Source: Minicystis rosea
GTDB lineage: Bacteria > Myxococcota_A > Polyangia > Polyangiales > Polyangiaceae
Reading direction: 5' to 3'
Assembly (NCBI GenBank): GCA_001931535.1
Contig: CP016211.1
Coordinates: 4,567,573-4,631,572, forward strand
DNA: 64,000 nt
This document shows positions 9,616-61,827 of this stretch, in pieces. Below the pieces are notes generated by a model. That model had not been told where the DNA came from and searched no databases. It saw nothing but the letters and a program-made list of their open reading frames with translations. How positions within the stretch are numbered: position 1 is the stretch's first letter; every line of letters starts with the position of its first letter. Both the position numbers and the translations under genes were made by a program.

Positions 9616-9741
9616 TCATCTGCACTTCGGCTTGGCCGCTCGACACGAGCTTACGAAAGGGTCACTCGCGTCCCGCTCACTTAAACGGCCGTCGCGTGTT
9701 GCCTCAACAAGCGACGCCATTGGGCAGGGGGGCTGTGTCAT
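9616..9741 (-). pseudogene. 5' remnant of an anti-sigma factor gene (first ~23 codons identical to anti-sigma 21822..22949, then a divergent tail and stop)
   Basis: 'MTQPPCPMASLVEATRDGRLSER' is identical to the N-terminus of the intact anti-sigma factor. It keeps the ATGA overlap with the sigma gene. Confidence 0.6.
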
Positions 9742-10343
9742 GTGCTTTTCTTCTTGGCGAGAGCGCGCCTCACCTCGGTGCGCGCATAATGTAGCCGGGT
9801 CCAAACCGTCCCCACCGGGATGTCGAGCGCGGCTGCAACCTCCTCACCGGAGAGCCCCTCGCGCTCAATCATCAGGAGAACGGCGCGCTTTTCCTCCGAA
9901 AGGCGCAGGACAGCCCGCGTGACCATCTCGATGTCTTGCGCGTCGGACGCCTCGTCCTCCGGGGACCGCGTCACGACGCGGGTCAACGTCTCTCCAAACG
10001 AGGCGATGATCCGCAGAAAACGGGCGTGTTTGCGTAGCCGATCGCGCGCGATCCGCGCAGCAATCCCGATCAGGAATGGACGCGCGCACGGCCGCCCATC
10101 GTACGTGGCACCGGCCCGCGGCAAGGCGAGGAAGGTCTCTTGAACGATGTCGTCGGCGTCGGCCGCACGCATGGTGAAGCGCAGCACGGAGCGGCGCACA
10201 TCGTCGTGATACCGATCGTAGAGCGCACCGAGCGCCGCGAGGTTGCCAGCGACAACTTTGGTGATGAGCTCGGCGTCGTCCTCCGCGCGATCCAAGCGCG
10301 TCATCACGGGGGCTTCTCCGCGAAGCTCGGCTCTGGATTTCAT
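9738..10343 (-). CDS. ECF (sigma-70 family) RNA polymerase sigma factor, copy 1 (orphan; its anti-sigma partner is truncated)
   Basis: '…FLALPRAGATYDGRPCARPFLIGIAARIARDRLRK…' (region 2) and 'LSEEKRAVLLMIEREGLSGEEVAAALDIPVGTVWTRLHYART' (region 4 helix-turn-helix). About 93% amino-acid identity to 22946..23551. Confidence 0.85.
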   Translation of the reverse strand: MKSRAELRGEAPVMTRLDRAEDDAELITKVVAGNLAALGALYDRYHDDVRRSVLRFTMRAADADDIVQETFLALPRAGATYDGRPCARPFLIGIAARIARDRLRKHARFLRIIASFGETLTRVVTRSPEDEASDAQDIEMVTRAVLRLSEEKRAVLLMIEREGLSGEEVAAALDIPVGTVWTRLHYARTEVRRALAKKKST

Positions 10344-10570
10344 AGAATGGCCATGTGCCAGAGCGCGATGGTGCACGCCTCGTCCTCGTCGAGCGCGCCC
10401 GCGTCCCCGAGCCGCGGTGGCAGCGAAGGCGCGCGTGTGGGGTCGCCCACCGCGTGCTTCGACGAGGCATCAATCTGATGGCCGCCCCACGCGCGATCGC
10501 ACGGCGGCGAGGGCGCGCAGCCGGGCAGCGCTCCGAGTGCGATGGCGCATCCGAGGGACCCACGAAGCAT
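10340..10570 (-). CDS. Hypothetical small lipoprotein
   Basis: 'MLRGSLGCAIALGALPGCAPS…' signal and lipobox. 76 aa. Sits upstream of the ECF sigma gene with a 4-nt overlap. Confidence 0.3.
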   Translation of the reverse strand: MLRGSLGCAIALGALPGCAPSPPCDRAWGGHQIDASSKHAVGDPTRAPSLPPRLGDAGALDEDEACTIALWHMAIL

Positions 10571-21821: not shown

Positions 21822-22949
21822 TCAGGGCCGACTGGGCTCGGCCAGGATCGCCTCCGCCTCCGCGCGGCGATAGCCCGTCGGATACAGCGCCAGGTAGCGG
21901 CGCGCCTCCGCGCGGGCGGCGGCCATACGGCCGGCGCGTTGCAGCGAGACCATGGCCAGAAATGCAGCGTCTTCGGCTCGCTCGTCACTCGGATATGCCT
22001 CGCGGAAGGCCGAGAGCTGCCGGGCGGCGGCATCGTAGTCCCCTCGGTCGGCGAGCCGGATACCTTCGCGCAGCGTATCCGCTGGATCCCGACGCGCGCT
22101 CTGCTCGTCCGGCCCCGGCTTGGCACCGGGGTGGTCGGACGAAGTCGCAGCGGATGTCGACCTGGCGAACACGGTAGATTCAGAAGGACCTTTCGGATTG
22201 GGTGTTGGCCTGGCAGGCACAGTCGCTCCTACCTCCGAGGGGCAGGACCAACGCTCTCCGGCGGCCACCAACCATGTCGTGCCGTGAAATCTCACCTCGA
22301 CCTTGCCCTCGGTTACGCGCACCGCGCGTAGGTGAGACGATCGCGCCTCGACGTGAAAGCGGGTACCACGCACCTCGACCTCAGCGTCAGCCGTGCGCAC
22401 GATGAAGCGCTCGGCGCCATGGAGCGGCCGAACTGAGAGCGCAATCACACCATCGTGCAAGGCCACGATCTCCGTGCCATCCGCCTTGGTGCGCATGAAC
22501 ACTGCCTTTCCGTCGGGAACGACCGTCGTTTCCGTGCGCATATGCAGTTCGGCAGGTGTCCCTTGCATATCGATCGGGGGCGCGATGGACCGCTGGATCT
22601 TCGGCAAGTGGGCGAGGATGGCGGGCCGTTCGGGCTCGTGATGATGTGCGATCCACCGAATAGCGGGCACGATGAGGAGCAGGAGTGCCACGTGTCGTCC
22701 CATGTTCGGCACAGGGCGCCGTGGTCGCGCAGCTTCGCGGAGTAGGGCGAGGCGTCCACGCTGCTTCTCCAAACGCGTGAGGGGTTGCACGCGCAGGATT
22801 CCACCCAGGTGGTCGAGCTCGGCCTTGAGTGCGGCGCATGCAGGACACACGAGAAGGTGGCGCGCGACCGAGGTCGCTTCCCGCTCGCTTAGACGGCCGT
22901 CGCGTGTTGCCTCAACAAGCGACGCCATTGGGCAGGGGGGCTGTGTCAT
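21822..22949 (-). CDS. Anti-sigma factor (zinc-finger N-terminus, FecR-like domain, TPR-like C-terminus)
   Basis: 'LLVCPACAALKAE' zinc-finger anti-sigma N-terminal domain. FecR-like beta region 'AEVEVRGTRFHVEA'. TPR-like C-terminus. ATGA overlap with the upstream ECF sigma gene. Confidence 0.75.
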   Translation of the reverse strand: MTQPPCPMASLVEATRDGRLSEREATSVARHLLVCPACAALKAELDHLGGILRVQPLTRLEKQRGRLALLREAARPRRPVPNMGRHVALLLLIVPAIRWIAHHHEPERPAILAHLPKIQRSIAPPIDMQGTPAELHMRTETTVVPDGKAVFMRTKADGTEIVALHDGVIALSVRPLHGAERFIVRTADAEVEVRGTRFHVEARSSHLRAVRVTEGKVEVRFHGTTWLVAAGERWSCPSEVGATVPARPTPNPKGPSESTVFARSTSAATSSDHPGAKPGPDEQSARRDPADTLREGIRLADRGDYDAAARQLSAFREAYPSDERAEDAAFLAMVSLQRAGRMAAARAEARRYLALYPTGYRRAEAEAILAEPSRP

Positions 22950-23551
22950 GTGCTCCTCTTCTTCACGAGAGCGCGCCTCACCTCGGTGCGCGCATAGTGT
23001 AGCCGGGTCCAGACCGTCCCCACCGGGATGTCGAGCTCGGCTGCGACCTCCTCACCGGAGAGCCCCTCGCGCTCAATCAACAGGAGAACGGCGCGCTTCT
23101 CCTCCGAAAGGCGCAGGACAGCCCGTGTGACCATCTCGATGTCTTGCGCGTCGGACGCCTCGTCCTCGGGGGTCCGCATCACGACGCGGGTCAACGTCTC
23201 TCCAAACGAGGCGATGATCCGCAGAAAACGGGCGTGTTTGCGCAGCCGATCGCGCGCGATCCGCGCAGCGATCCCGATCAGGAATGGACGCGCGCACGGC
23301 CGCCCGTCGTACGTGGCGCCGGCCCGCGGCAAGGCGAGGAAGGTCTCCTGAACGATGTCGTCGGCGTCGGCCGCACGCACGGTGGAACGCAGCACGAAGC
23401 GACGCACGTCGTCGTGATAGCGATCGTAGAGCACACCGAGCGCCGCGAGGTTGCCTGCAACGACTTTGGTGATGAGCTCGACGTCATCCTCCGCGCGGTC
23501 CGGACGCGTCATCACGGGGTCTTCTACGGGCATCTCGGCTCTGGATTTCAT
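22946..23551 (-). CDS. ECF sigma factor, copy 2 (with intact anti-sigma partner)
   Basis: Near-identical paralog of 9738..10343. Sigma-70 regions 2 and 4 are present. Confidence 0.85.
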   Translation of the reverse strand: MKSRAEMPVEDPVMTRPDRAEDDVELITKVVAGNLAALGVLYDRYHDDVRRFVLRSTVRAADADDIVQETFLALPRAGATYDGRPCARPFLIGIAARIARDRLRKHARFLRIIASFGETLTRVVMRTPEDEASDAQDIEMVTRAVLRLSEEKRAVLLLIEREGLSGEEVAAELDIPVGTVWTRLHYARTEVRRALVKKRST

Positions 23552-24471
23552 CGAATGGCCACGTCGACACCGAACGTGAGCCCTACGGAGTAGGCGGGGA
23601 GCGGCGGCAAAACAGGATCGATTCGGCGCGCTCCGATGGCGCTGGCAGGCGCGACCTCACCGTCGATCCCCAAGACCCCGCGCCAGGTCCGACTCCAGTG
23701 GAGCGTCGCGCGGAGCCCGAGCGCGACACGCGCATCCACCTTGGCGCCCTCAGCCTCGCTCCCCTGCTGGCGCGCCTCCATGGAGACGATGCCAATCGAT
23801 GGATCGAATGCCACTTGCAGCTCCAGGACTCGGGTCATGAGGATCCTGCGGCTGACTGAGAGGCCAAGCCCCAGGTCCGACATTGAGAAATCGCCAGGGA
23901 CCTCATCGAATGTGTGCGGCAGACCGAGCCGTCCCCAAGCCCCCACCGACCAGGTACCGAAGGGGACTGCGGCGCGAAGCGTGGCCGTCCCCCACAACGC
24001 TCGAAGGGCGCCGCCGTATCGAATCCCCGCCAGCGCCTCGATGAGCAAGCGCGGCTCCGAAGGGCCTTGTAACGGCGCGCTCACGGACTCGACCGGAGAT
24101 GATGGCGCACGAGCGAGCGGAGGCCATTGCAGCGAGAACGCGAGCAACGCTTCGACGGTGGGCAGGAGCTCAGTGGGGCCTGTCACCTGGCGAGTCGCCA
24201 CTCTCCCATGTGAATCGGTACGAGTGATGGTCGCGTTCTCTAGAGCTGAGCTCACGCGAAGGCGCAGCTCCCCTCCGGCACAACTCCATATGTGCCCCTC
24301 TTCGGCGATGGCGACCGCGACGTCGTCGTACGCCTGTTGCCAGGCGGCGGACAGGACGGCTTCCTCGACGATTAACTGCGGCGGTACGCACGACTCGGCC
24401 CGTACCGAGACGGCGCTGATCAACAGCGTCGTCGTGGCCACGAGGACGAGCCGTGCGCGCCGCCGCCCCAT
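23548..24471 (-). CDS. Hypothetical secreted protein
   Basis: Signal-like 'MGRRRARLVLVATTTLLISAVSVRAES'. No family recognised. Coupled by 4-nt overlaps to the flanking genes. Confidence 0.45.
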   Translation of the reverse strand: MGRRRARLVLVATTTLLISAVSVRAESCVPPQLIVEEAVLSAAWQQAYDDVAVAIAEEGHIWSCAGGELRLRVSSALENATITRTDSHGRVATRQVTGPTELLPTVEALLAFSLQWPPLARAPSSPVESVSAPLQGPSEPRLLIEALAGIRYGGALRALWGTATLRAAVPFGTWSVGAWGRLGLPHTFDEVPGDFSMSDLGLGLSVSRRILMTRVLELQVAFDPSIGIVSMEARQQGSEAEGAKVDARVALGLRATLHWSRTWRGVLGIDGEVAPASAIGARRIDPVLPPLPAYSVGLTFGVDVAIR

Positions 24472-29147: not shown

Positions 29148-29426
29148 CGGTGCCGAGGGTACTCCGGCGTCGACAGAAGGCCATTCCTGGGCCGCATCAC
29201 GAGAGCACGGCGGCGGCGATCTTCGCACGTCATGTCGCTGTTCGCGGCCGCCCTGCGGATCGCCTTGTCCACGCGGATTGAGAGGCGCGCGCGCTGTCCC
29301 GTGAACTTCTTCGCGAGGGCGCTTGGGACGCGCCGTACGCGGCGGGGTGGCGGGACGCTCGTCTTACGCGCCGTTAAGCCGTTGCACCGCATGCCGCATT
29401 GGCGCGGCGCATCCCGAGGGAGGTAC

Positions 29427-31533
29427 ATCCCGGTAGGGACGGCCCTTTCGGGCCGCCCCCCGGACAGAGCCCGGCGAGCGGATCTCCCGCACCGGGCTCC
29501 CACCTTCGGTCTACGGACATGCAAAGCGCTGACTGGGCCAGGGGTGGACGATGCGAGCCGGCGGAAACGGAAAGCAGACATCGAAACGCTTGGTCTTCTC
29601 GACGGTCCATTGGGCTCGTTGACTTCGCCTTTGAAGCTGGCGATGCCAGGCGAGCTCGACTTGCCGACGGAACATCACCAGCGCCCGTGAATTCGTGGAA
29701 ACTCCATAGTAGTTGCAGTGCCCACGAATCACAGCGCAGAGCCACCGATGTTGTAGCGCCGGTGGCTCGTGCCTTCGTCGTCTTATTTCCACACGTAGCT
29801 CTGACAGCTTCGCCACGCGCTTCTTCCGGGAGGTACGACGTTGCAGTTGGAACCTGCCACCGCGCGTTTGGCCGGCGATGTGCGTGAACCCAAGGAAGTC
29901 AAACGTCTCGGGCCGCGCACGGCCGTCGTGTCTGCACTCCTTGCGGGCGTAGCGCCCGAACCGCAGCACCCGAGTCTTCTCTGGGTGCAGCTCCAAGCCG
30001 AACTTCACGATGCGCTCGGCCATCGCCGACCGCATCGCGCGTGCGTCCTGTTCGTACTGAAAGCCCAGCACCACGTCGTCGGCATAGCGCACAATGTAGA
30101 CTTCCCCTCGCGCATGCCGCCGCCGCCATTGCTGGACCCACAGGTCGAGCGCGTAGTGCAGGTAGATGTTCGACAGCAAAGGGCTGATGCCACCCCCTTG
30201 TGGCGCTCCCTCCTGCACCGCGCGCACCTCACCGTCCTCCATGACGCCAGCGTGCAGCCACTTCATCAAGAGCCACACCATGCGTCGGTCTGCGATCGTG
30301 TGCTCGATGAACTTCTGCATCCATCCGTGCTCAATCGTGTCGTAGAACGCACGGATATCCGCGTCGAGCACCCAGCTCACCTTCTTGCCGATGGCCACCG
30401 CGAGAGCATCCAGAGCCCGATGCTGCGACCGGCCAGGCCGGAAGCCATACGAGAACCCCAGAAACGCCTGCTCGTAAATGGGCTCCAGGATCATCCGCGC
30501 TGCTTGTTGAACAATCTTGTCCTCCAGCGCAGGAATGCCGAGCGGACGCGTGCGACCATCTCCTTTGGGGACGTGTACACGCCGGACCGGCTGCGGATGA
30601 TAGTTGCCGCGGTGAACGCGGTCCTGAAGGTCACGCATTCGGGCGTCCAAATTCTCGCCGTATACGCGCCATGTTATCCCATCTACACCAGGAGCCGCTT
30701 CCTTGTTGAGACGGCTGTACGCCTCCTTCAGAAGTGGCACCTTGATGTGGCTCAGCAGGTTGGTGAACCGTTCCCCTTTCCTTTGCTTCACTCGCTGTCC
30801 GACCCGCTCCAGGGCCGTGAGCGCGCCTGCCCGGTTCTGAGCCCGGAGCGCGTTTCGTGGAGCAGGTTTCCCGTTGGCCGCGCGCCTTCCCTCCATCGAC
30901 TCCGCAGGCGTTACCCTCGCGTTCGCCGACTTCTTGCAGGTCGGTACTACGCGCGCGTCTGACTCCTCGGAGGACTGCTGCGGATTGCGGCTTCTGCCTT
31001 CCCGCCCGTGCCTGAGGACCGCTATCGGCCCACCGGCCCCTCCGAGGTCTCCCGGTTCCCGTGCATGAGACGTGTGGGGGCTTGCCGAACTCTTGGACCC
31101 CGGAGGGAGCAGTGAATCCAGGTCCACATTATTCGGAAACACGCTATGGCCATCCGCATGGTCTAACTGCGTTGGCTCCCTCGAACCATGTTGTTTCGGA
31201 GCTCGATCACCCGGCCCGCCCACATGCCCTCCTACGCTTCGCCCCGCAGGTCACCCTGCGTTGCGCAAAGATAGGCTTCCCAGGGGTGGACTCTTCCTGG
31301 GGCAGGACTTGCTCGACACGACATGTATCTTGCTCACCTGCTTTCTCATGCCGGTTTTCACCGGCGCACCAGACCGAACATTTGGGGAAATGTTCGTTCT
31401 TCCTCGTGAATCATCGGTCGGGTGCCACCAGCTTAACACGAGTCTGATCTCGGCGAGCTCCCCAACCTTGTCGGCGGCGATGCACGGACCGGGAGGCGCG
31501 GACTTCGTAGACACCGCCGACGGGCGACGGCGG
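29427..31533 (-). mobile_element. Group II intron (apparently full length, ~2.1 kb) with intron-encoded RT/maturase
   Basis: Minus-strand 5' end GTGCG at 31533. IEP ORF lies in domain IV. Domain V 'GAGCCCGGTGCGGGAGATCCGCTCGCCGGGCTC' and domain VI hairpin 'CCGGGGGGCGGCCCGAAAGGGCCGTCCCTACCGGGAT' have a bulged A 8 nt from the 3' end and end in AT at 29427. Confidence 0.75.
29511..30896 (-). CDS. Group II intron reverse transcriptase/maturase (intron-encoded protein)
   Basis: RT domains 0-7 ('GVDGITWRVYG', 'RRVHVPKGDGRTRPLGIPALEDKIVQ', 'FRPGRSQHRAL', 'YADDVVLG') and maturase X 'RGHCNYYGV'. No HNH endonuclease domain. Confidence 0.85.
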   Translation of the reverse strand: MEGRRAANGKPAPRNALRAQNRAGALTALERVGQRVKQRKGERFTNLLSHIKVPLLKEAYSRLNKEAAPGVDGITWRVYGENLDARMRDLQDRVHRGNYHPQPVRRVHVPKGDGRTRPLGIPALEDKIVQQAARMILEPIYEQAFLGFSYGFRPGRSQHRALDALAVAIGKKVSWVLDADIRAFYDTIEHGWMQKFIEHTIADRRMVWLLMKWLHAGVMEDGEVRAVQEGAPQGGGISPLLSNIYLHYALDLWVQQWRRRHARGEVYIVRYADDVVLGFQYEQDARAMRSAMAERIVKFGLELHPEKTRVLRFGRYARKECRHDGRARPETFDFLGFTHIAGQTRGGRFQLQRRTSRKKRVAKLSELRVEIRRRRHEPPALQHRWLCAVIRGHCNYYGVSTNSRALVMFRRQVELAWHRQLQRRSQRAQWTVEKTKRFDVCFPFPPARIVHPWPSQRFACP

Positions 31534-32768: not shown

Positions 32769-33958
32769 GTTTGCTCCTTTGGATACGTCGGCACCACGGA
32801 CGACGTCGTATCGGCCCCTACAACATGCGCGCCAATCGAGGATACGGGCCACGGCGTTCGAGAGCCCGGGTTTCGGGCGCCTCGATGGCCTCCGCGAGGC
32901 ACCCGGAGACGGAGGTGACTCGGCACGTGCCCGGCACGTGCCTGTTTGGGTGCCCGCCGTCCAATGTCCTTACACACGGAAATCGGCGACGGCGACGTCA
33001 ACGGCAATCGGTCGTTGCCGTTGACGTTGACGTGAGCGTTGCGGCCGCCGTCGCCGTCGCCGAACGTGGCGTCCGGGACCAATTCCGAAGGTTGGAGCTG
33101 TGTGTCAGGATCGATCGACGCTCCTCGACGACGGCCGAGTGCTCGTCTCGGGGGGACAGGCGCCGCCCACGACGTCGGGGAGCGCGATCTTGGCGAGCGC
33201 CGAGTTGTTCGGACTTTGAGTCCGGCGAGATGGCGCGACTGGCCGTTGTCGCCCACCCTTACTCGCGCGGCGGCGCCGACGCCTGACCGTGCCCTTCGGT
33301 GAACAAGCAGATCGGCGAGCGCGGGGGCCTTTACCAGCTCGTCAGCGATGGTCGCGGAGGGCCGGGATACGCACTGCGTTGGCGCGGCGCGTCCCGAGGG
33401 GAGTGCCAGACCGAACAAGGTTGTCACTGTTCGATCTTCCTCGCGATCCATCGTCCAAGCCATTTCTGCCACAACCTGCTCGCCGTGGGTCGCGCCAACG
33501 ACGTGGCGCGTGCGGCGCGTCAGGCGCCCCCAACACCGCGCGCTCTCGCATCGCTTGGGGATTACGCGACGGAGCCCAGCGCACGCCCGCTGGGTGGTAT
33601 CCGATACCGCGGGTATCCGATCCCCGAAGCCGACCAGGCACCGAGCGGGTCTCCGAGGCGCACGTCGGTTCGGTCGAAGATGACGTCGTTCAGGGCGTTG
33701 ACGGCGCCCTCGATGGCTCATCTCCTCGCGCGTGAGGAGACGATGATGACGAAGACGATCGAGGAAATTCGGGCAGCGTTGGTGCGGAGCAACGTCGGAT
33801 TTGGCCGACCTTATTCGGAGGGCCCGTCCGACTTCCCCTGACCCCACCCGAGGCGCGATCCAGGATACTCGCCCACTCCCGGCACCCGGTCGTCTCCCCA
33901 GGTTCCGTTCGTCGTCCCGGATGCCTGCGCCGGACACGGCGCGCGAGTGAGGTCGAGC

Positions 33959-36695: not shown

Positions 36696-37640
36696 ACGAG
36701 GTCTCCTTGGGCTGGCCCTCATCGATGGCGCGCGACAAGCCGTCGAAACGATGGTGCGGAGGATGGCCGACGCCAACGTGGTAGGGTCGAGATAAGCGTA
36801 CCGCAGTATAATGTCCCACGTTCGCCGTGAAGGGCTACAAGTGCATAAAATCACGTTGAATTCCGACGTGCTGCGGGTATCGCAGGTCGGGCGTAGCTCG
36901 GGCAGCCTCTCACGTCCTCAAAACCTCGCAATCCCCTCCGCCAGCGGCCTGAACCGGTACACCCGATAGGGCGCCCCATTCCTCGCCACGCCGTCCGCCG
37001 CCATCCTCCGCGTCGGTGACGGTCGGATCGTAGAGGCTCGGCACGAAGCGCGCCGGATCGGACATGACCGTTCGGTAAAGGGCGTCATTCGTCAGCACGC
37101 TCCTTTGCCCCGGATGCGCCCGTCATCAGGGGATGTTCATGAGCGCCTCTGGTCTTCGACCCGAGGTCCCACGGACACCGAACAAGCGCAGGAGCCAAGT
37201 TCGAAGAACTGGTACAGTTGGGGCTTGCCCTCGGGCCAAGCGCCGCGGCCCACCCATCCGCACGCGTCTCTCCGAACGCGCGGGTGTACTTGGACGTTCG
37301 CGGTCTGGACTTCTGGCTCGGCGATTGACAACCCATCCGCCTCGCCCGTCCCTGAATGTTCATCCCTCTGTGGGTGTTCATGACCTCCATCGAGATCGTC
37401 GCCTACGCCGAACACATCACCCGGATTTCACGCTCGAACCCACTTGCTCATGACTTCCATCCCGAGGGAGGTGCTGAACACGCCAAAGAGCTCTCCCCCA
37501 TGTCAAGGGCGACGGAGCCGGCTCGCGTAGCGGGCGAACCCTCAACGCGGCTGAGCACTCTGCATGCTCATCCGGCGACGGGCTGACGGTCGACGCGAGG
37601 GTCAAAAATCCGCGGATCGTGGCGGCCGTCTACAGTTGAC

Positions 37641-37722
37641 CGAAGGTGGGAGCCCGGTGCGGGAAATCCGCCCGCCGGGTTCTGTCCGGGGGGCGGCCCG
37701 AAAGAGCCGTCCCTACCGGGAT
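37641..37722 (+). mobile_element. Orphan group II intron 3' remnant (domains V-VI only)
   Basis: 'GAGCCCGGTGCGGGAAATCCGCCCGCCGGGTTCTGTCCGGGGGGCGGCCCGAAAGAGCCGTCCCTACCGGGAT' is ~90% identical to DV-DVI of the full intron. No IEP or DI-IV lies upstream. Confidence 0.6.
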
Positions 37723-38185
37723 GCACTCCCCTCGGAAGGGAAGCGCGAACTGGATCCGCGGGATGAACTGTAGACGCTGGGCCACATGGGCGTTCGGGCC
37801 TCGCCCTCAGGGGCGTCAGCGGTGCTCGCCGCGCCGCTACGGCGGCACCCCGAAGCTCCGGGAGGCCGCACGGCACCCGAGGGCGGCCGCGGGCGCGTTC
37901 ATGTTCGGCGTCCTGCACACGGGAAACCCGTTCTACGCCGCGCTCATCTACGGGACGCTGGCCGCGTTCGTGGGCATGCCGGTGTTCGCCGGCGGCACCC
38001 TCGCCGTGCGGCGGCTGTTCCTGCGCGAAGCCCAGCAACACGGCCTCGCCAAGTCGACGTCGACGCTCATCCTCACCCGCGCCGAGCGCCGCGCGCGCCT
38101 CTTGCCGTTCTGGAAGCGCGAGGACGAGCGCCTCGAGCTCCTCCTGCAAGCGGTCCGCGAGCCCGATCGCGCCGACTGCCCCGGG

Positions 38186-54775: not shown

Positions 54776-55948
54776 TCACGCCGCGAGGACGACCTTCTCG
54801 CAACCGTCGAGCTTGTTGACGAACAGGTCGTATCCGCGGGGCGCGTCCTCGAGCTTCATGCGATGGGTGATGACGAAGCTCGGATCGATCTCGCCCTTCT
54901 GGATGCGCTCGAGCAGCGGGCGCATGTAACGCTGCACGTGGCACTGGCCGCTCTTGATGGTGAGCGAGCGGTTCATCACGGCGCCCATGGGGAACTTGTC
55001 GATGAAACCGCCGTACACGCCGATGACGCTGACGATGCCGCCGTTGCGGCACGCCTGGATCGCCTCGCGCAGCGCGATCGGGCGATCGGTCTCGAGCCGC
55101 ATGGCCTGCTTGGCGCGGTCGTAGGCGAACATCGGCCCGTGTCCGTGCGCCTCCATGCCCACGGCGTCGATGCACGCGTCGGGGCCGCGCCCGGCGGTCA
55201 TCTCGGCGAGCGCCTCGAGCACGTCCACCTCCTCGTAGTTGATCGTCGCCGACGCGCCTGCCTTGTCCCGCGCCATCTGGAGCCTATACGGGAAGCGATC
55301 GATGGCGATCACGCGCTCGGCGCCGAGCAGGCGCGCGCTGGCGACGGCGAGCAGACCGACCGGGCCCGCGCCCCACACGGCCACGACGTCGCCGGGCTCG
55401 ATCTCGGCCATCTCCGCGCCCATGTAGGCCGTCGGGAAGATGTCGGAGAGGAAGAGCACCTGTTCGTCAGTGAGCTCGGCCGGGACCTTGATCGGCCCGA
55501 CGTCGGCGAACGGCACGCGCGCGTACTCGGCCTGGCCGCCCGCATAACCGCCCAGCAGGTGCGAATAGCCGAAGATGCCCGCCGGCGAGTGGCCCCACAG
55601 CTTCTCGGCCATCCAGGCGTTGGGGTTCGAGTTCTCGCAGACCGAATACAGCTCCTCCTTGCACATCGCGCAGGTGCCGCAGGCGATGGGGAAGGGGACG
55701 ACCACGCGATCGCCGACCTTCAGGTTCTTCACCCCGGGCCCGACCTCGACGACCTCGCCCATGAACTCGTGGCCGAGGATGTCGCCCTTCTCCATGGTGG
55801 GGATGAAGCCGTTGAAGAGGTGCAGATCCGAGCCGCAGATGGCCGTCGACGTGATCTTGATGATGGCGTCGTGCGAATTCAGGATCTGCGGATCCGGCAC
55901 GTCCTCGACCCGAACCTTCCTCTTGTCGATCCAGCTGTTGGCTTTCAT
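54776..55948 (-). CDS. Zn-dependent alcohol dehydrogenase, glutathione-independent formaldehyde dehydrogenase-like
   Basis: 'CGSDLH', '[12 protein letters not shown]', structural-zinc Cys cluster '[15 protein letters not shown]', 'VWGAGPVG' Rossmann motif. Confidence 0.85.
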
Positions 55949-58965: not shown

Positions 58966-60135
58966 ATGCGAGCAATCTGCTGGAACGGCGTCAACGACGT
59001 GCGCGCCGAGCGCGTGCCCGAGCCGAAGATCCTGAACCCGCGCGACGCCATCGTCCGCGTCACCATGTCGTCCGTGTGCGGGTCGGACCTCCACCTGTTG
59101 CACGGCTACATCCCCACGATGAAGGCGGGCGACATCATCGGCCACGAGTTCATCGGTGAGATCGTCGAGACGGGCCCGGGCGTGAAGAACCTGGCGAGGG
59201 GTGATCGCGTCGTCGTCTGCTCCATCCTCGGCTGCGGCGCCTGCTACTACTGCAAGCACCAGCTCTTCTCGCTCTGCGACAACTCGAACCCGAACCACGT
59301 CGTCACCGACAAGCTCTTCGGCGACACCACCGGCGGTATCTTCGGCTACTCGCACGCCTTCGGCGGCTACGCGGGCAGCCACGCCGAGTACGTCCGCGTG
59401 CCGCTCGCCGACGTCGGCGCCTTCCGGGTGCCGGCGGGCATCCCGGACGAGCGCCTCGTCTTCGCCTCGGACGCGCTCGCGACCGGGTACATGGGCGCGG
59501 ACATCGCGGGCATCCAGCGGGGCGACGTGGTCGCGGTGTGGGGGGCCGGCGGCGTCGGGCAGATGGCCATTCGATCCGCGTACCTGCTCGGCGCCGAGCG
59601 CGTCATCGCCATCGATCAGATCCCCGAGCGGCTCGCCGTGGCGCGCGAGAAGGGGCACGCCGAGACCTTGAACTTCCGCGAGGTCGACGTGCTCGAAGCC
59701 CTCCGCGAGCTGACCGGCGGCCGCGGGCCGGACCGCTGCATCGACGCGGTGGGCATGGAGGCCGAGCGCGGAGGCCTGCTCGGCGTCTACGACCGGGTGA
59801 AGCAGGCGCTGCGCCTCGAGACGGATCGGCCCCACGTGCTGCGCCAGGCGATCATGGCCTGCCGCAAGGGCGGCACCCTCTCGATCCTGGGCGTCTACGC
59901 CGGCCTCGTCGACAAGCTCCCCATGGGCGCGGTGATGAACAAGGCGCTCGTGATCCGCACGGGCCAGCAGCACGGGCAGCGCTACATCCCGCGGTTGATC
60001 GAGCACATCGTCCGCGGCGAGATCGATCCCTCGGACCTCGCCACCCACCGCTTGCCCATCGAGGATGCGCAACGCGGGTACGACCTGTTCGCGAGCCGCA
60101 AGGAAGGCTGCCTGCGCGTCGTCTTCACCCCGTGA
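58966..60135 (+). CDS. Zn-dependent alcohol dehydrogenase, formaldehyde-dehydrogenase-like (paralog, ~60% identical to 54776..55948)
   Basis: 'CGSDLHLLHGYIPTMKAGDIIGHEFIGEIVETG', 'CGACYYCKHQLFSLC', 'VWGAGGVG'. Confidence 0.85.
   Translation: MRAICWNGVNDVRAERVPEPKILNPRDAIVRVTMSSVCGSDLHLLHGYIPTMKAGDIIGHEFIGEIVETGPGVKNLARGDRVVVCSILGCGACYYCKHQLFSLCDNSNPNHVVTDKLFGDTTGGIFGYSHAFGGYAGSHAEYVRVPLADVGAFRVPAGIPDERLVFASDALATGYMGADIAGIQRGDVVAVWGAGGVGQMAIRSAYLLGAERVIAIDQIPERLAVAREKGHAETLNFREVDVLEALRELTGGRGPDRCIDAVGMEAERGGLLGVYDRVKQALRLETDRPHVLRQAIMACRKGGTLSILGVYAGLVDKLPMGAVMNKALVIRTGQQHGQRYIPRLIEHIVRGEIDPSDLATHRLPIEDAQRGYDLFASRKEGCLRVVFTP

Positions 60136-60506: not shown

Positions 60507-61827
<1,321 letters not shown>

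Follow-up and report, generated by a model that had tools for sequence, protein, structure and literature searches.

An endonuclease-less group II intron, its uninterrupted target, and an intron remnant within 8.4 kb of the Minicystis rosea genome

Introduction

Minicystis rosea is a myxobacterium with a genome of roughly 16 Mb. In one stretch of this genome, 64,000 nt long and referred to here as the window, a short sequence that adjoins a group II intron is found again without any intron in it. A preliminary description of the window took this sequence to be an intron homing site of about 40 bp, defined by some 30 nt of the 3' exon and present in three copies, two of them occupied. The locus raises the question of whether the repeated sequence is indeed the target of the intron, and if so, which part of it is recognized and what the sequence represents in its host.

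Within 8.4 kb, the locus displays in compact form the natural life cycle of a group II intron: one apparently intact copy, one target without an intron, and one decayed stump. An intron side by side with its uninterrupted target is an ordinary but clean example of its kind, and the current understanding of group II intron movement is unchallenged by it.

The full-length intron and its protein

The intron and its reading frame occupy the minus strand:

29427 to 31369, minus strand: full-length group II intron of 1,943 nt (Rfam RF02005 and reading of the sequence)
29511 to 30896, or out to 31223, minus strand: reverse transcriptase/maturase ORF (Pfam RVT_1, E=4e-35, and translation)

The ends of the intron were set by comparing the empty site and 10 related introns. 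The ribozyme features sought for a mobile bacterial group II intron were a 5' GUGYG, a domain V (DV), a domain VI (DVI) whose bulged A lies 7-8 nt from a 3' end of the form AY, and agreement with a curated covariance model, and the window intron has them. Its 5' end is GUGCG (GTGCGCCGG at 31369), its 3' end reads ...CTACCGGGAT (also written ...GTCCCTACCGGGAT) at 29427, and DV and DVI with the bulged A stand at the 3' end, terminating ...CUACCGGGAU 3'. The model RF02005 (group-II-D1D4-6) matches 31088-31311 on the minus strand with 112.6 bits, against a gathering score of 49, over model positions 1-225. The reverse transcriptase/maturase expected in domain IV is present as a frame open over 461-570 aa with an intact YADD (...VRYADDVVLGF...), and the endonuclease domain is absent from this protein. 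GenBank starts the ORF at the GTG at 31223, giving APR78576.1 of 570 aa, an exact match; the product of the downstream gene, APR78575.1, a 200-aa CDP-alcohol phosphatidyltransferase-like protein, is an exact match as well. Judged by GUGCG, DV, the bulged A of DVI, the open YADD frame, and RF02005, the window intron looks intact.

Searches with blastn and tblastn found one full copy of the intron in the window, an 88-nt 3' fragment, and an unrelated 5' fragment at 60511-61354. This last, on the minus strand, belongs to a second, different group II intron (RF02005, 180.8 bits, matched at 61097-61319), of which the first 133 protein residues remain, 52% identical to the main intron protein, and which breaks off beside a dehydrogenase-like gene. 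Its 5' exon, ending ...GTGCAGCAGATA, also forms a hairpin (z=-2.7). Positions 9821 and 23029, returned by a loose pattern for intron 3' ends, were rejected as chance matches in the 3' parts of two paralogous ECF-sigma-like genes. The window also contains a 691-nt direct repeat, 93% identical (9666-10356 and 22874-23564), that consists of the 3' parts of two minus-strand ECF-sigma-like genes, and an inverted paralogous pair (54820-55915 and 58999-60091), 73% identical over 1.1 kb, that resembles zinc-type dehydrogenase genes.

Copies of the unit in the window

The repeated sequence, called the unit from here on, takes three forms in the window:

31370 to 31442, minus strand: occupied copy, 5' half (nhmmer E=1.8e-23)
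29396 to 29426, minus strand: occupied copy, 3' half, GTACCTCCCTCGGGATGCGCCGCGCCAATGC, the interval of the preliminary description (26/31 identical to the empty copy)
33376 to 33476, minus strand: empty, uninterrupted copy of the whole unit (nhmmer E=3e-27)
37635 to 37722, plus strand: intron remnant of 88 nt, 5'-truncated, DV-DVI only (RF00029, 48.5 bits at 37648-37722)
37723 to 37735, plus strand: remnant of a third copy, GCACTCCCCTCGG, confined to +1 to +13 of the 3' half (13/13 match with the empty copy)

All three sequences are present where the preliminary description placed them, and its observation is confirmed in a stronger form than it had realized. It rested on the 3' exon, of which the first 31 nt match between occupied and empty copies at 26 positions, and overlooked the 5' exon, which is repeated there too: in the empty copy, its final 11 nt (TGTTCGGTCTG) are identical and 35 of its final 47 nt match. 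The empty copy consists of both intron flanks joined with nothing between them, the junction falling exactly between 33407 and 33406, so that the one still-empty site it had proposed holds up and 33376-33476 looks as an unoccupied homing site should. As for two of the three copies being occupied, one does hold the full intron, but the third amounts to a 13-nt remnant after a stump. The stump shares 94% identity with the full intron's 3' end, and, as had been stated, the intron 3' end lies at the same relative position in both, with full intron and stump in the same register. The 13 nt of the third copy are likewise in register with the stump's 3' end; similarity then drops to 17/31, and no 5' half of the unit was found beside the stump at 37635-37722.

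The length given for the unit has to be revised from ~40 bp to ~90 nt across species and ~105 nt within the M. rosea window. Beyond ~75 nt upstream and 31 nt downstream, the occupied and empty loci are unrelated, and the unit is therefore a discrete one and not part of a longer duplicated segment, the circumstance named at the outset as fatal to the homing-site reading. When the window was searched with the consensus pattern, exactly two sites were obtained against 0.00 expected from shuffles, and across the 64 kb an nhmmer profile of the unit turned up no additional full copy. The occupied and empty copies have the same orientation and lie ~2 kb apart, the third is inverted, and all of them (two full copies and one remnant) fall within 8.4 kb. 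Both full copies are upstream of same-strand genes, and no transposase gene was identified next to either.

The unit in other genomes

Copies elsewhere were sought with the exact pattern AAGAWCGAACA-N8-12-TGTTCGGTCTG in 185,579 bacterial and archaeal genomes, one per species, and in JGI metagenomes. The species genomes returned two genuine copies, both empty (a Byssovorax MAG, L013, and a Myxococcales MAG, L014), along with one unrelated match, and the metagenomes returned one further empty copy (L016) and two unrelated matches. These three further genuine copies are each on a separate contig and match the unit with nhmmer E=1e-34 to 3e-30. No M. rosea genome was returned by the scan of species genomes, and M. 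rosea copies are counted in the 64-kb window only. Occupied versions exist as well: the closest relative of the intron, with a 94% identical protein, is preceded by the matching 5' exon cgATGATTCACCAGGAAGATCGAACAttcatccaaaTGTTCGGTCTG on a metagenome contig (L003), and an 87%-identical relative (L006) is preceded by a diverged version of the unit's 5' exon. A search for an orthologous version of the occupied locus without the intron yielded none, the upstream region of one contig not being alignable.

Across species the conserved unit spans ~-75 (GGTTGTGGTAAGCT) to ~+14 (...CCTCCCTCGG), and similarity past +14 is confined to the two window copies. The neighboring genes differ in every case. From these alignments, the unit can be called conserved in several myxobacteria of the Polyangiales type, where it is found with the intron as well as without it. 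At 2346-2566 of one further contig (L005), a class III adenylate/guanylate cyclase domain is represented by its final 59 residues (Pfam positions 125-183 of 183), directly preceded by eleven nt from the 3' half of the unit (CTCCCTCCCTC), and the unit appears joined to a truncated gene. The idea that the 3' flanks of L013 and L014 are decayed forms of this cyclase fragment was rejected, as no pair of 3' flanks is similar past +14 except those of the window copies.

Proposed recognition of the target by the intron RNA

The segments that would pair between intron RNA and target are as follows:

31160 to 31165, minus strand: EBS1, 5'-UAGACC-3' (6/6 pairs, one of them G-U, with IBS1 GGUCUG at -6 to -1)
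31188 to 31192, minus strand: EBS2, 5'-AACAU-3' (5/5 pairs with IBS2 AUGUU at -12 to -8)
31370 to 31375, minus strand: IBS1 of the occupied copy
31377 to 31381, minus strand: IBS2 of the occupied copy

The complementarity to EBS1 and EBS2 that had been suggested as a check is complete on the occupied copy, at 6/6 and 5/5 pairs with the 5' exon. In the empty copy, IBS1 is identical to that of the occupied copy and pairs 6/6 with EBS1 while IBS2 pairs 4/5 with EBS2, and it is therefore still a good target. Across 9 related introns, EBS1 and IBS1 covary (UAGACC or CAGACC with GGUCUG, CAGAUC with GAUCUG, and CGGAUC with GAUCCG), and EBS2 and IBS2 covary at the same alignment columns (AACAU with (A/G)UGUU, GACG with CGUC, and GACA with UGUC), such that three EBS1 types fit three IBS1 types and three EBS2 types fit three IBS2 types. 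Non-cognate EBS1 combinations also pair fairly well when G-U is allowed, with a mean of 5.4/6 vs 5.9/6 for cognate ones. The covariation identifies these loops as EBS1 and EBS2, and the recognized target is therefore in the 5' exon, at -12 to -1, rather than in the ~30 nt of 3' exon by which the site had first been defined. For EBS3-IBS3 or delta-delta', no alignment column of domain I covaries with the +1 base among the 6 introns compared, and within the 3' exon the intron RNA could pair with position +1 at most. The IBS sequences sit in the 3' arm of a hairpin, and unless the DNA is unwound, this hairpin would be in competition with EBS pairing.

Another reading is that the conserved motif of the 3' exon (G[CT]AC[CT][TC]CCCTCGG...) is itself a recognition element, read by the intron protein. 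In every copy, conservation 3' of the junction is highest over +1 to +13, and the protein of RmInt1, which also has no endonuclease domain, requires positions up to +5 (PMC4615759). Relatives with 79-89% identical protein nevertheless use dissimilar 3' exons (TGGGGGCCCC, TGGGTCCAG, CGTCCAGG, and ATCCGAAG), and empty copies in other genomes keep the same bases with no intron present. Membership in the host element is therefore sufficient to explain these bases, and we regard recognition of the motif by the protein as unlikely.

Probable retrohoming into the unit

The homing-site reading of the preliminary description, once corrected for the recognized part, the length of the unit, and its dispersal, is well supported: the empty junction is exact, the EBS/IBS pairing covaries, and other assemblies hold the unit both occupied and empty. 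That the unit is a dispersed repeat is not established. On this evidence, it is probable that M. rosea carries a mobile endonuclease-less group II intron that retrohomes into a specific site inside a conserved ~90-nt intergenic element, and retrohoming into the unit can be called well supported as a reading of these sequences. The excised intron RNA, together with its own reverse transcriptase/maturase, would locate the target via base pairing, with EBS2 (AACAU) on -12 to -8 (ATGTT) and EBS1 (UAGACC) on -6 to -1 (GGTCTG), and would reverse-splice between ...GGTCTG and G(C/T)AC. Since the protein is without an endonuclease domain, copying into cDNA would presumably be primed from the replication fork. 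The conservation of the 3'-exon sequence would follow from its being part of the host element and not from any reading of it by the intron RNA. The window copies would then represent different states of the process, the first holding an apparently intact intron, the second empty, and the inverted third, its own 5' half presumably lost, holding no more than an 88-nt 3' stump of a related intron. We infer the mobility of the intron, the priming of its cDNA, and the origin of the stump from this arrangement.

Two other accounts of the same copies have to be weighed. The first is that the host DNA was duplicated locally, segmentally or in tandem, with one copy happening to carry an intron for which the element is not a preferred target. 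The confinement of all window copies to 8.4 kb, the shared orientation and ~2-kb spacing of the two full ones, and a similarity between window copies that reaches +31 rather than the +14 seen between species are what such an event would leave. Flanks that are unrelated beyond ~105 nt are not, and neither are the match of both EBS1 and EBS2 to the unit, its occupation by related introns elsewhere (L003 and L006) while three others are empty, or the fact that the full intron and the stump (94% identical) are independent insertions at one identical position. We consider local duplication extremely improbable.

According to the second account, the unit travels with the intron, through co-conversion of flanks or retro-copying of spliced and unspliced transcripts, and empty copies are footprints of intron loss. 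A different gene lies downstream in every copy examined, several contigs terminate close to the unit, and the 11 nt of its 3' half in L005 abut a truncated cyclase gene as if inserted or joined there. Against this, the stretches read around the three empty copies on other contigs contain no intron sequence, relatives of the intron sit at other targets without the unit, and the conserved box at the start of the unit, ~75 nt upstream, is explained by no part of the intron. A unit carried along by its intron is improbable.

Nature of the unit

Three features of the unit itself are referred to in this section, with coordinates for the occupied copy:

31391 to 31399 and 31372 to 31380, minus strand: arms of the 9-bp hairpin (z=-3.9)
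31412 to 31414, minus strand: conserved ATG (at 33449-33451 in the empty copy)
31430 to 31439, minus strand: GTGTTAAGCT box

The unit is a relatively AT-rich island, with 48-58% GC vs ~67% in the window, and contains a conserved 9-bp inverted repeat, GATCGAACA-N10-TGTTCGGTC, the intron lying 2 nt past the stem. Folded as single-stranded DNA, the occupied copy gives a significant hairpin (z=-3.9), whereas that of the empty copy falls short of significance (z=-1.1). RNAalifold recovers the hairpin together with an outer CGAGG/CCUCG helix, with no compensatory changes. A candidate long-range helix between the GTGGTAAG box and UCUG-GYAC across the junction was rejected, as RNAalifold did not predict it, and the structure predicted instead lacks covariation support (covariation term +0.75). 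Among Rfam models the unit has no match, with only intron models appearing at E<=1; it also gave no tRNA or tmRNA and no plasmid BLAST match. On the strand opposite the intron, window 31375-31396 (plus) forms a hairpin followed by TTCTTCCTCG and scores as a weak terminator-like site, and other copies of the unit carry a similar (A/T)TCTTCCTCG tail after the hairpin. At the ends of the unit, only a weak 7/9 complementarity (GTGGTAAGC vs GCTACCTC) was found in place of terminal inverted repeats, and no target-site duplication. An insertion-sequence end, a terminal inverted repeat, and a tRNA fragment were each considered for the unit and are not supported by the alignment or the tRNA search. The N-terminus of a larger protein was likewise rejected, given that the frame runs into arginine-rich nonsense or an early stop and no database protein shares it.

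The unit is treated here as an uncharacterized conserved intergenic element, for which a promoter-proximal leader or a micro-ORF appears the most plausible function. In the fuller proposal, which would add to retrohoming rather than compete with it, the unit serves the host as a small gene or regulatory module and gives the intron a transcribed safe harbor. The candidate micro-ORF has 20-36 codons (M-I-x-E-E-D-R-T-[FV]-x-x-[ML]-F-G-L, with [VAL]-[PL]-P-S past the junction) and would be interrupted in phase 0 after codon 15. Its ATG is invariant in 7 copies and lies exactly 15 codons before the junction, its frame is the sole one open in all copies, and several of the differences between copies are synonymous (GAG/GAA, ACA/ACG, TTC/TTT, CCC/CCA, and TCG/TCT). 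Past codon 19, however, the frames diverge completely and stop at different places, the third-position excess is not significant (8/15 variable sites, p=0.09), no Shine-Dalgarno sequence was found, and the peptide is in none of 5.8 billion predicted proteins, where 3 word candidates arose and none scored. For either function, the relatively AT-rich composition (48-58% against ~67% GC) and the position of both window copies upstream of same-strand genes can be cited, as can a TGnTAAGCT box, which resembles an extended -10 element and stands 12-16 nt upstream of the ATG. By eye, an ECF-like GAAC-N18-TCTG can also be made out. Against the proposal, a scan of the unit with the sigma-70 consensus found no promoter, and the hairpin is without compensatory changes. 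A host module of this sort is a tentative proposal, and we think it less likely than not to be correct.

Relatives of the intron and their targets

Relatives were gathered via the intron protein, which gave 8,000 hits, the named ones (~80% identical) being from Sorangium and Pendulispora, and their flanks were then read. Three classes of target emerged, namely the unit, the reverse transcriptase gene of another group II intron, and the DV/DVI junction of a host intron. In the second class, the insertion falls between ANIYLHYVFDL and WVQ of the other intron's protein (L004 1266, L005 400, and L007 25). The third class consists of twintrons, in which 79-89%-identical relatives lie between DV and DVI of the host intron (L001, L008-L010, and L018-L028; for example, L019 2676-4623). 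The 3' exons of these host introns themselves form a C-rich repeat (cgcctccccgcctccctg...). Beyond these classes, two copies of a more distant relative were seen in an IS66-rich contig (L011 1193-3978 and 8786-12481); they share one repeated target with near-identical flanks over ~65 nt 5' and 53 nt 3', unlike the window unit.

An intron with one identical protein (P0003) has been assembled beside both the flank of the reverse transcriptase gene and the flank of the unit. Because of this, the unit may have been colonized from the intron-borne target, whose IBS is similar (GTTCGATCTG vs GTTCGGTCTG), followed by a one-base change in EBS1, as the sequences suggest. Contigs with identical intron protein also combine different 5' and 3' flanks, and these mixed flanks are probably assembly chimeras across the repeated intron.

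A possible hairpin with the IBS segment as its 3' arm can be drawn in all three target classes, and in the reverse transcriptase gene the ANIYLHYVFDL segment likewise reads CGAACA...TGTTCG. A lineage that is not IIC and has no endonuclease might accordingly prefer structured targets, in which IBS2-IBS1 supplies the 3' arm of the hairpin and the intron enters 2-5 nt beyond the stem. Were this true, the unit would be an uncharacterized Polyangiales-type element (a hairpin and a possible 20-36-codon micro-ORF) serving as the intron's safe harbor. In two other related targets (L002 and L011) no hairpin reaches significance, so that the association is an observation and not a rule, and we hold a general preference for structure to be doubtful.

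From the related loci, it appears that small changes in EBS1 and EBS2 shift the lineage among three kinds of target. This may be of use in studies of target switching and in the design of targetrons from endonuclease-less introns. The locus also flags a conserved myxobacterial element of ~90 nt.

Comparison with known intron systems

The closest parallels are RmInt1 and RmInt2 of Sinorhizobium meliloti, endonuclease-less introns of class D/IIB3 whose homing targets are ISRm2011-2 and the inverted repeats of ISRm17 (PMC4615759). Their targets extend from about -20 to +5, lie in repeated insertion-sequence DNA, and are read mainly via EBS1, EBS2, and EBS3 (PMC4615759). Like the window intron, they have the reverse transcriptase and maturase regions without the endonuclease domain, and their target is set mainly by EBS pairing (EBS1, EBS2, and EBS3 over about -14 to +1). 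A genome holds more than one copy of the target sequence, so that sites with and without the intron occur together, and truncated copies are common. The RmInt1 target even shares with the window target the single-nucleotide linker from IBS2 to IBS1. In contrast to these systems, the host element in the window is not an insertion sequence, and the window intron is a putatively mobile one. The class D signature LX3AX3PXLF[V/A]HW (PMC4615759) resembles the C-terminus of the window protein (...PPARIVHPWPSQRFACP / ...FDVCFPFPPARIVHPWPSQRFACP) but has no exact match there, and the intron is therefore not filed under class D. Among myxobacterial introns, Mx.xa.I1 and Sg.ce.I1 belong to group g2 (PMC3552965).

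Introns of group IIC insert at terminator hairpins or integron attC stem-loops (PMC4424553), and the insertion in the window, 2 nt 3' of a conserved hairpin, is reminiscent of them, as are the relatives whose insertion point lies 2 nt past another hairpin, domain V of a host intron. The window intron differs in its clear, covarying EBS2-IBS2 pairing, in having the IBS inside the 3' arm of the hairpin and not after it, in the absence of a T-run after the hairpin on the intron strand, and in matching the Rfam model group-II-D1D4-6. The related targets without a significant hairpin (L002 and L011) are a further difference. Since EBS2 pairing is present and the hairpin holds the IBS rather than preceding it, the window intron is, as judged from its sequence features, not a IIC intron.

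Nested introns and twintrons are known in bacteria from Thermosynechococcus (PMC2882425) and Trichodesmium (PMC4649490). Close relatives of the window intron resemble these in being nested between the DV and DVI of a host or inside the reverse transcriptase gene of another intron, whereas the window copy is not nested, with no host intron around it by Rfam and tblastn. Bacterial group II introns have three target strategies, which are homing sites, terminators, and attC sites (PMC4424553), and the case in the window is one of the homing-site strategy.
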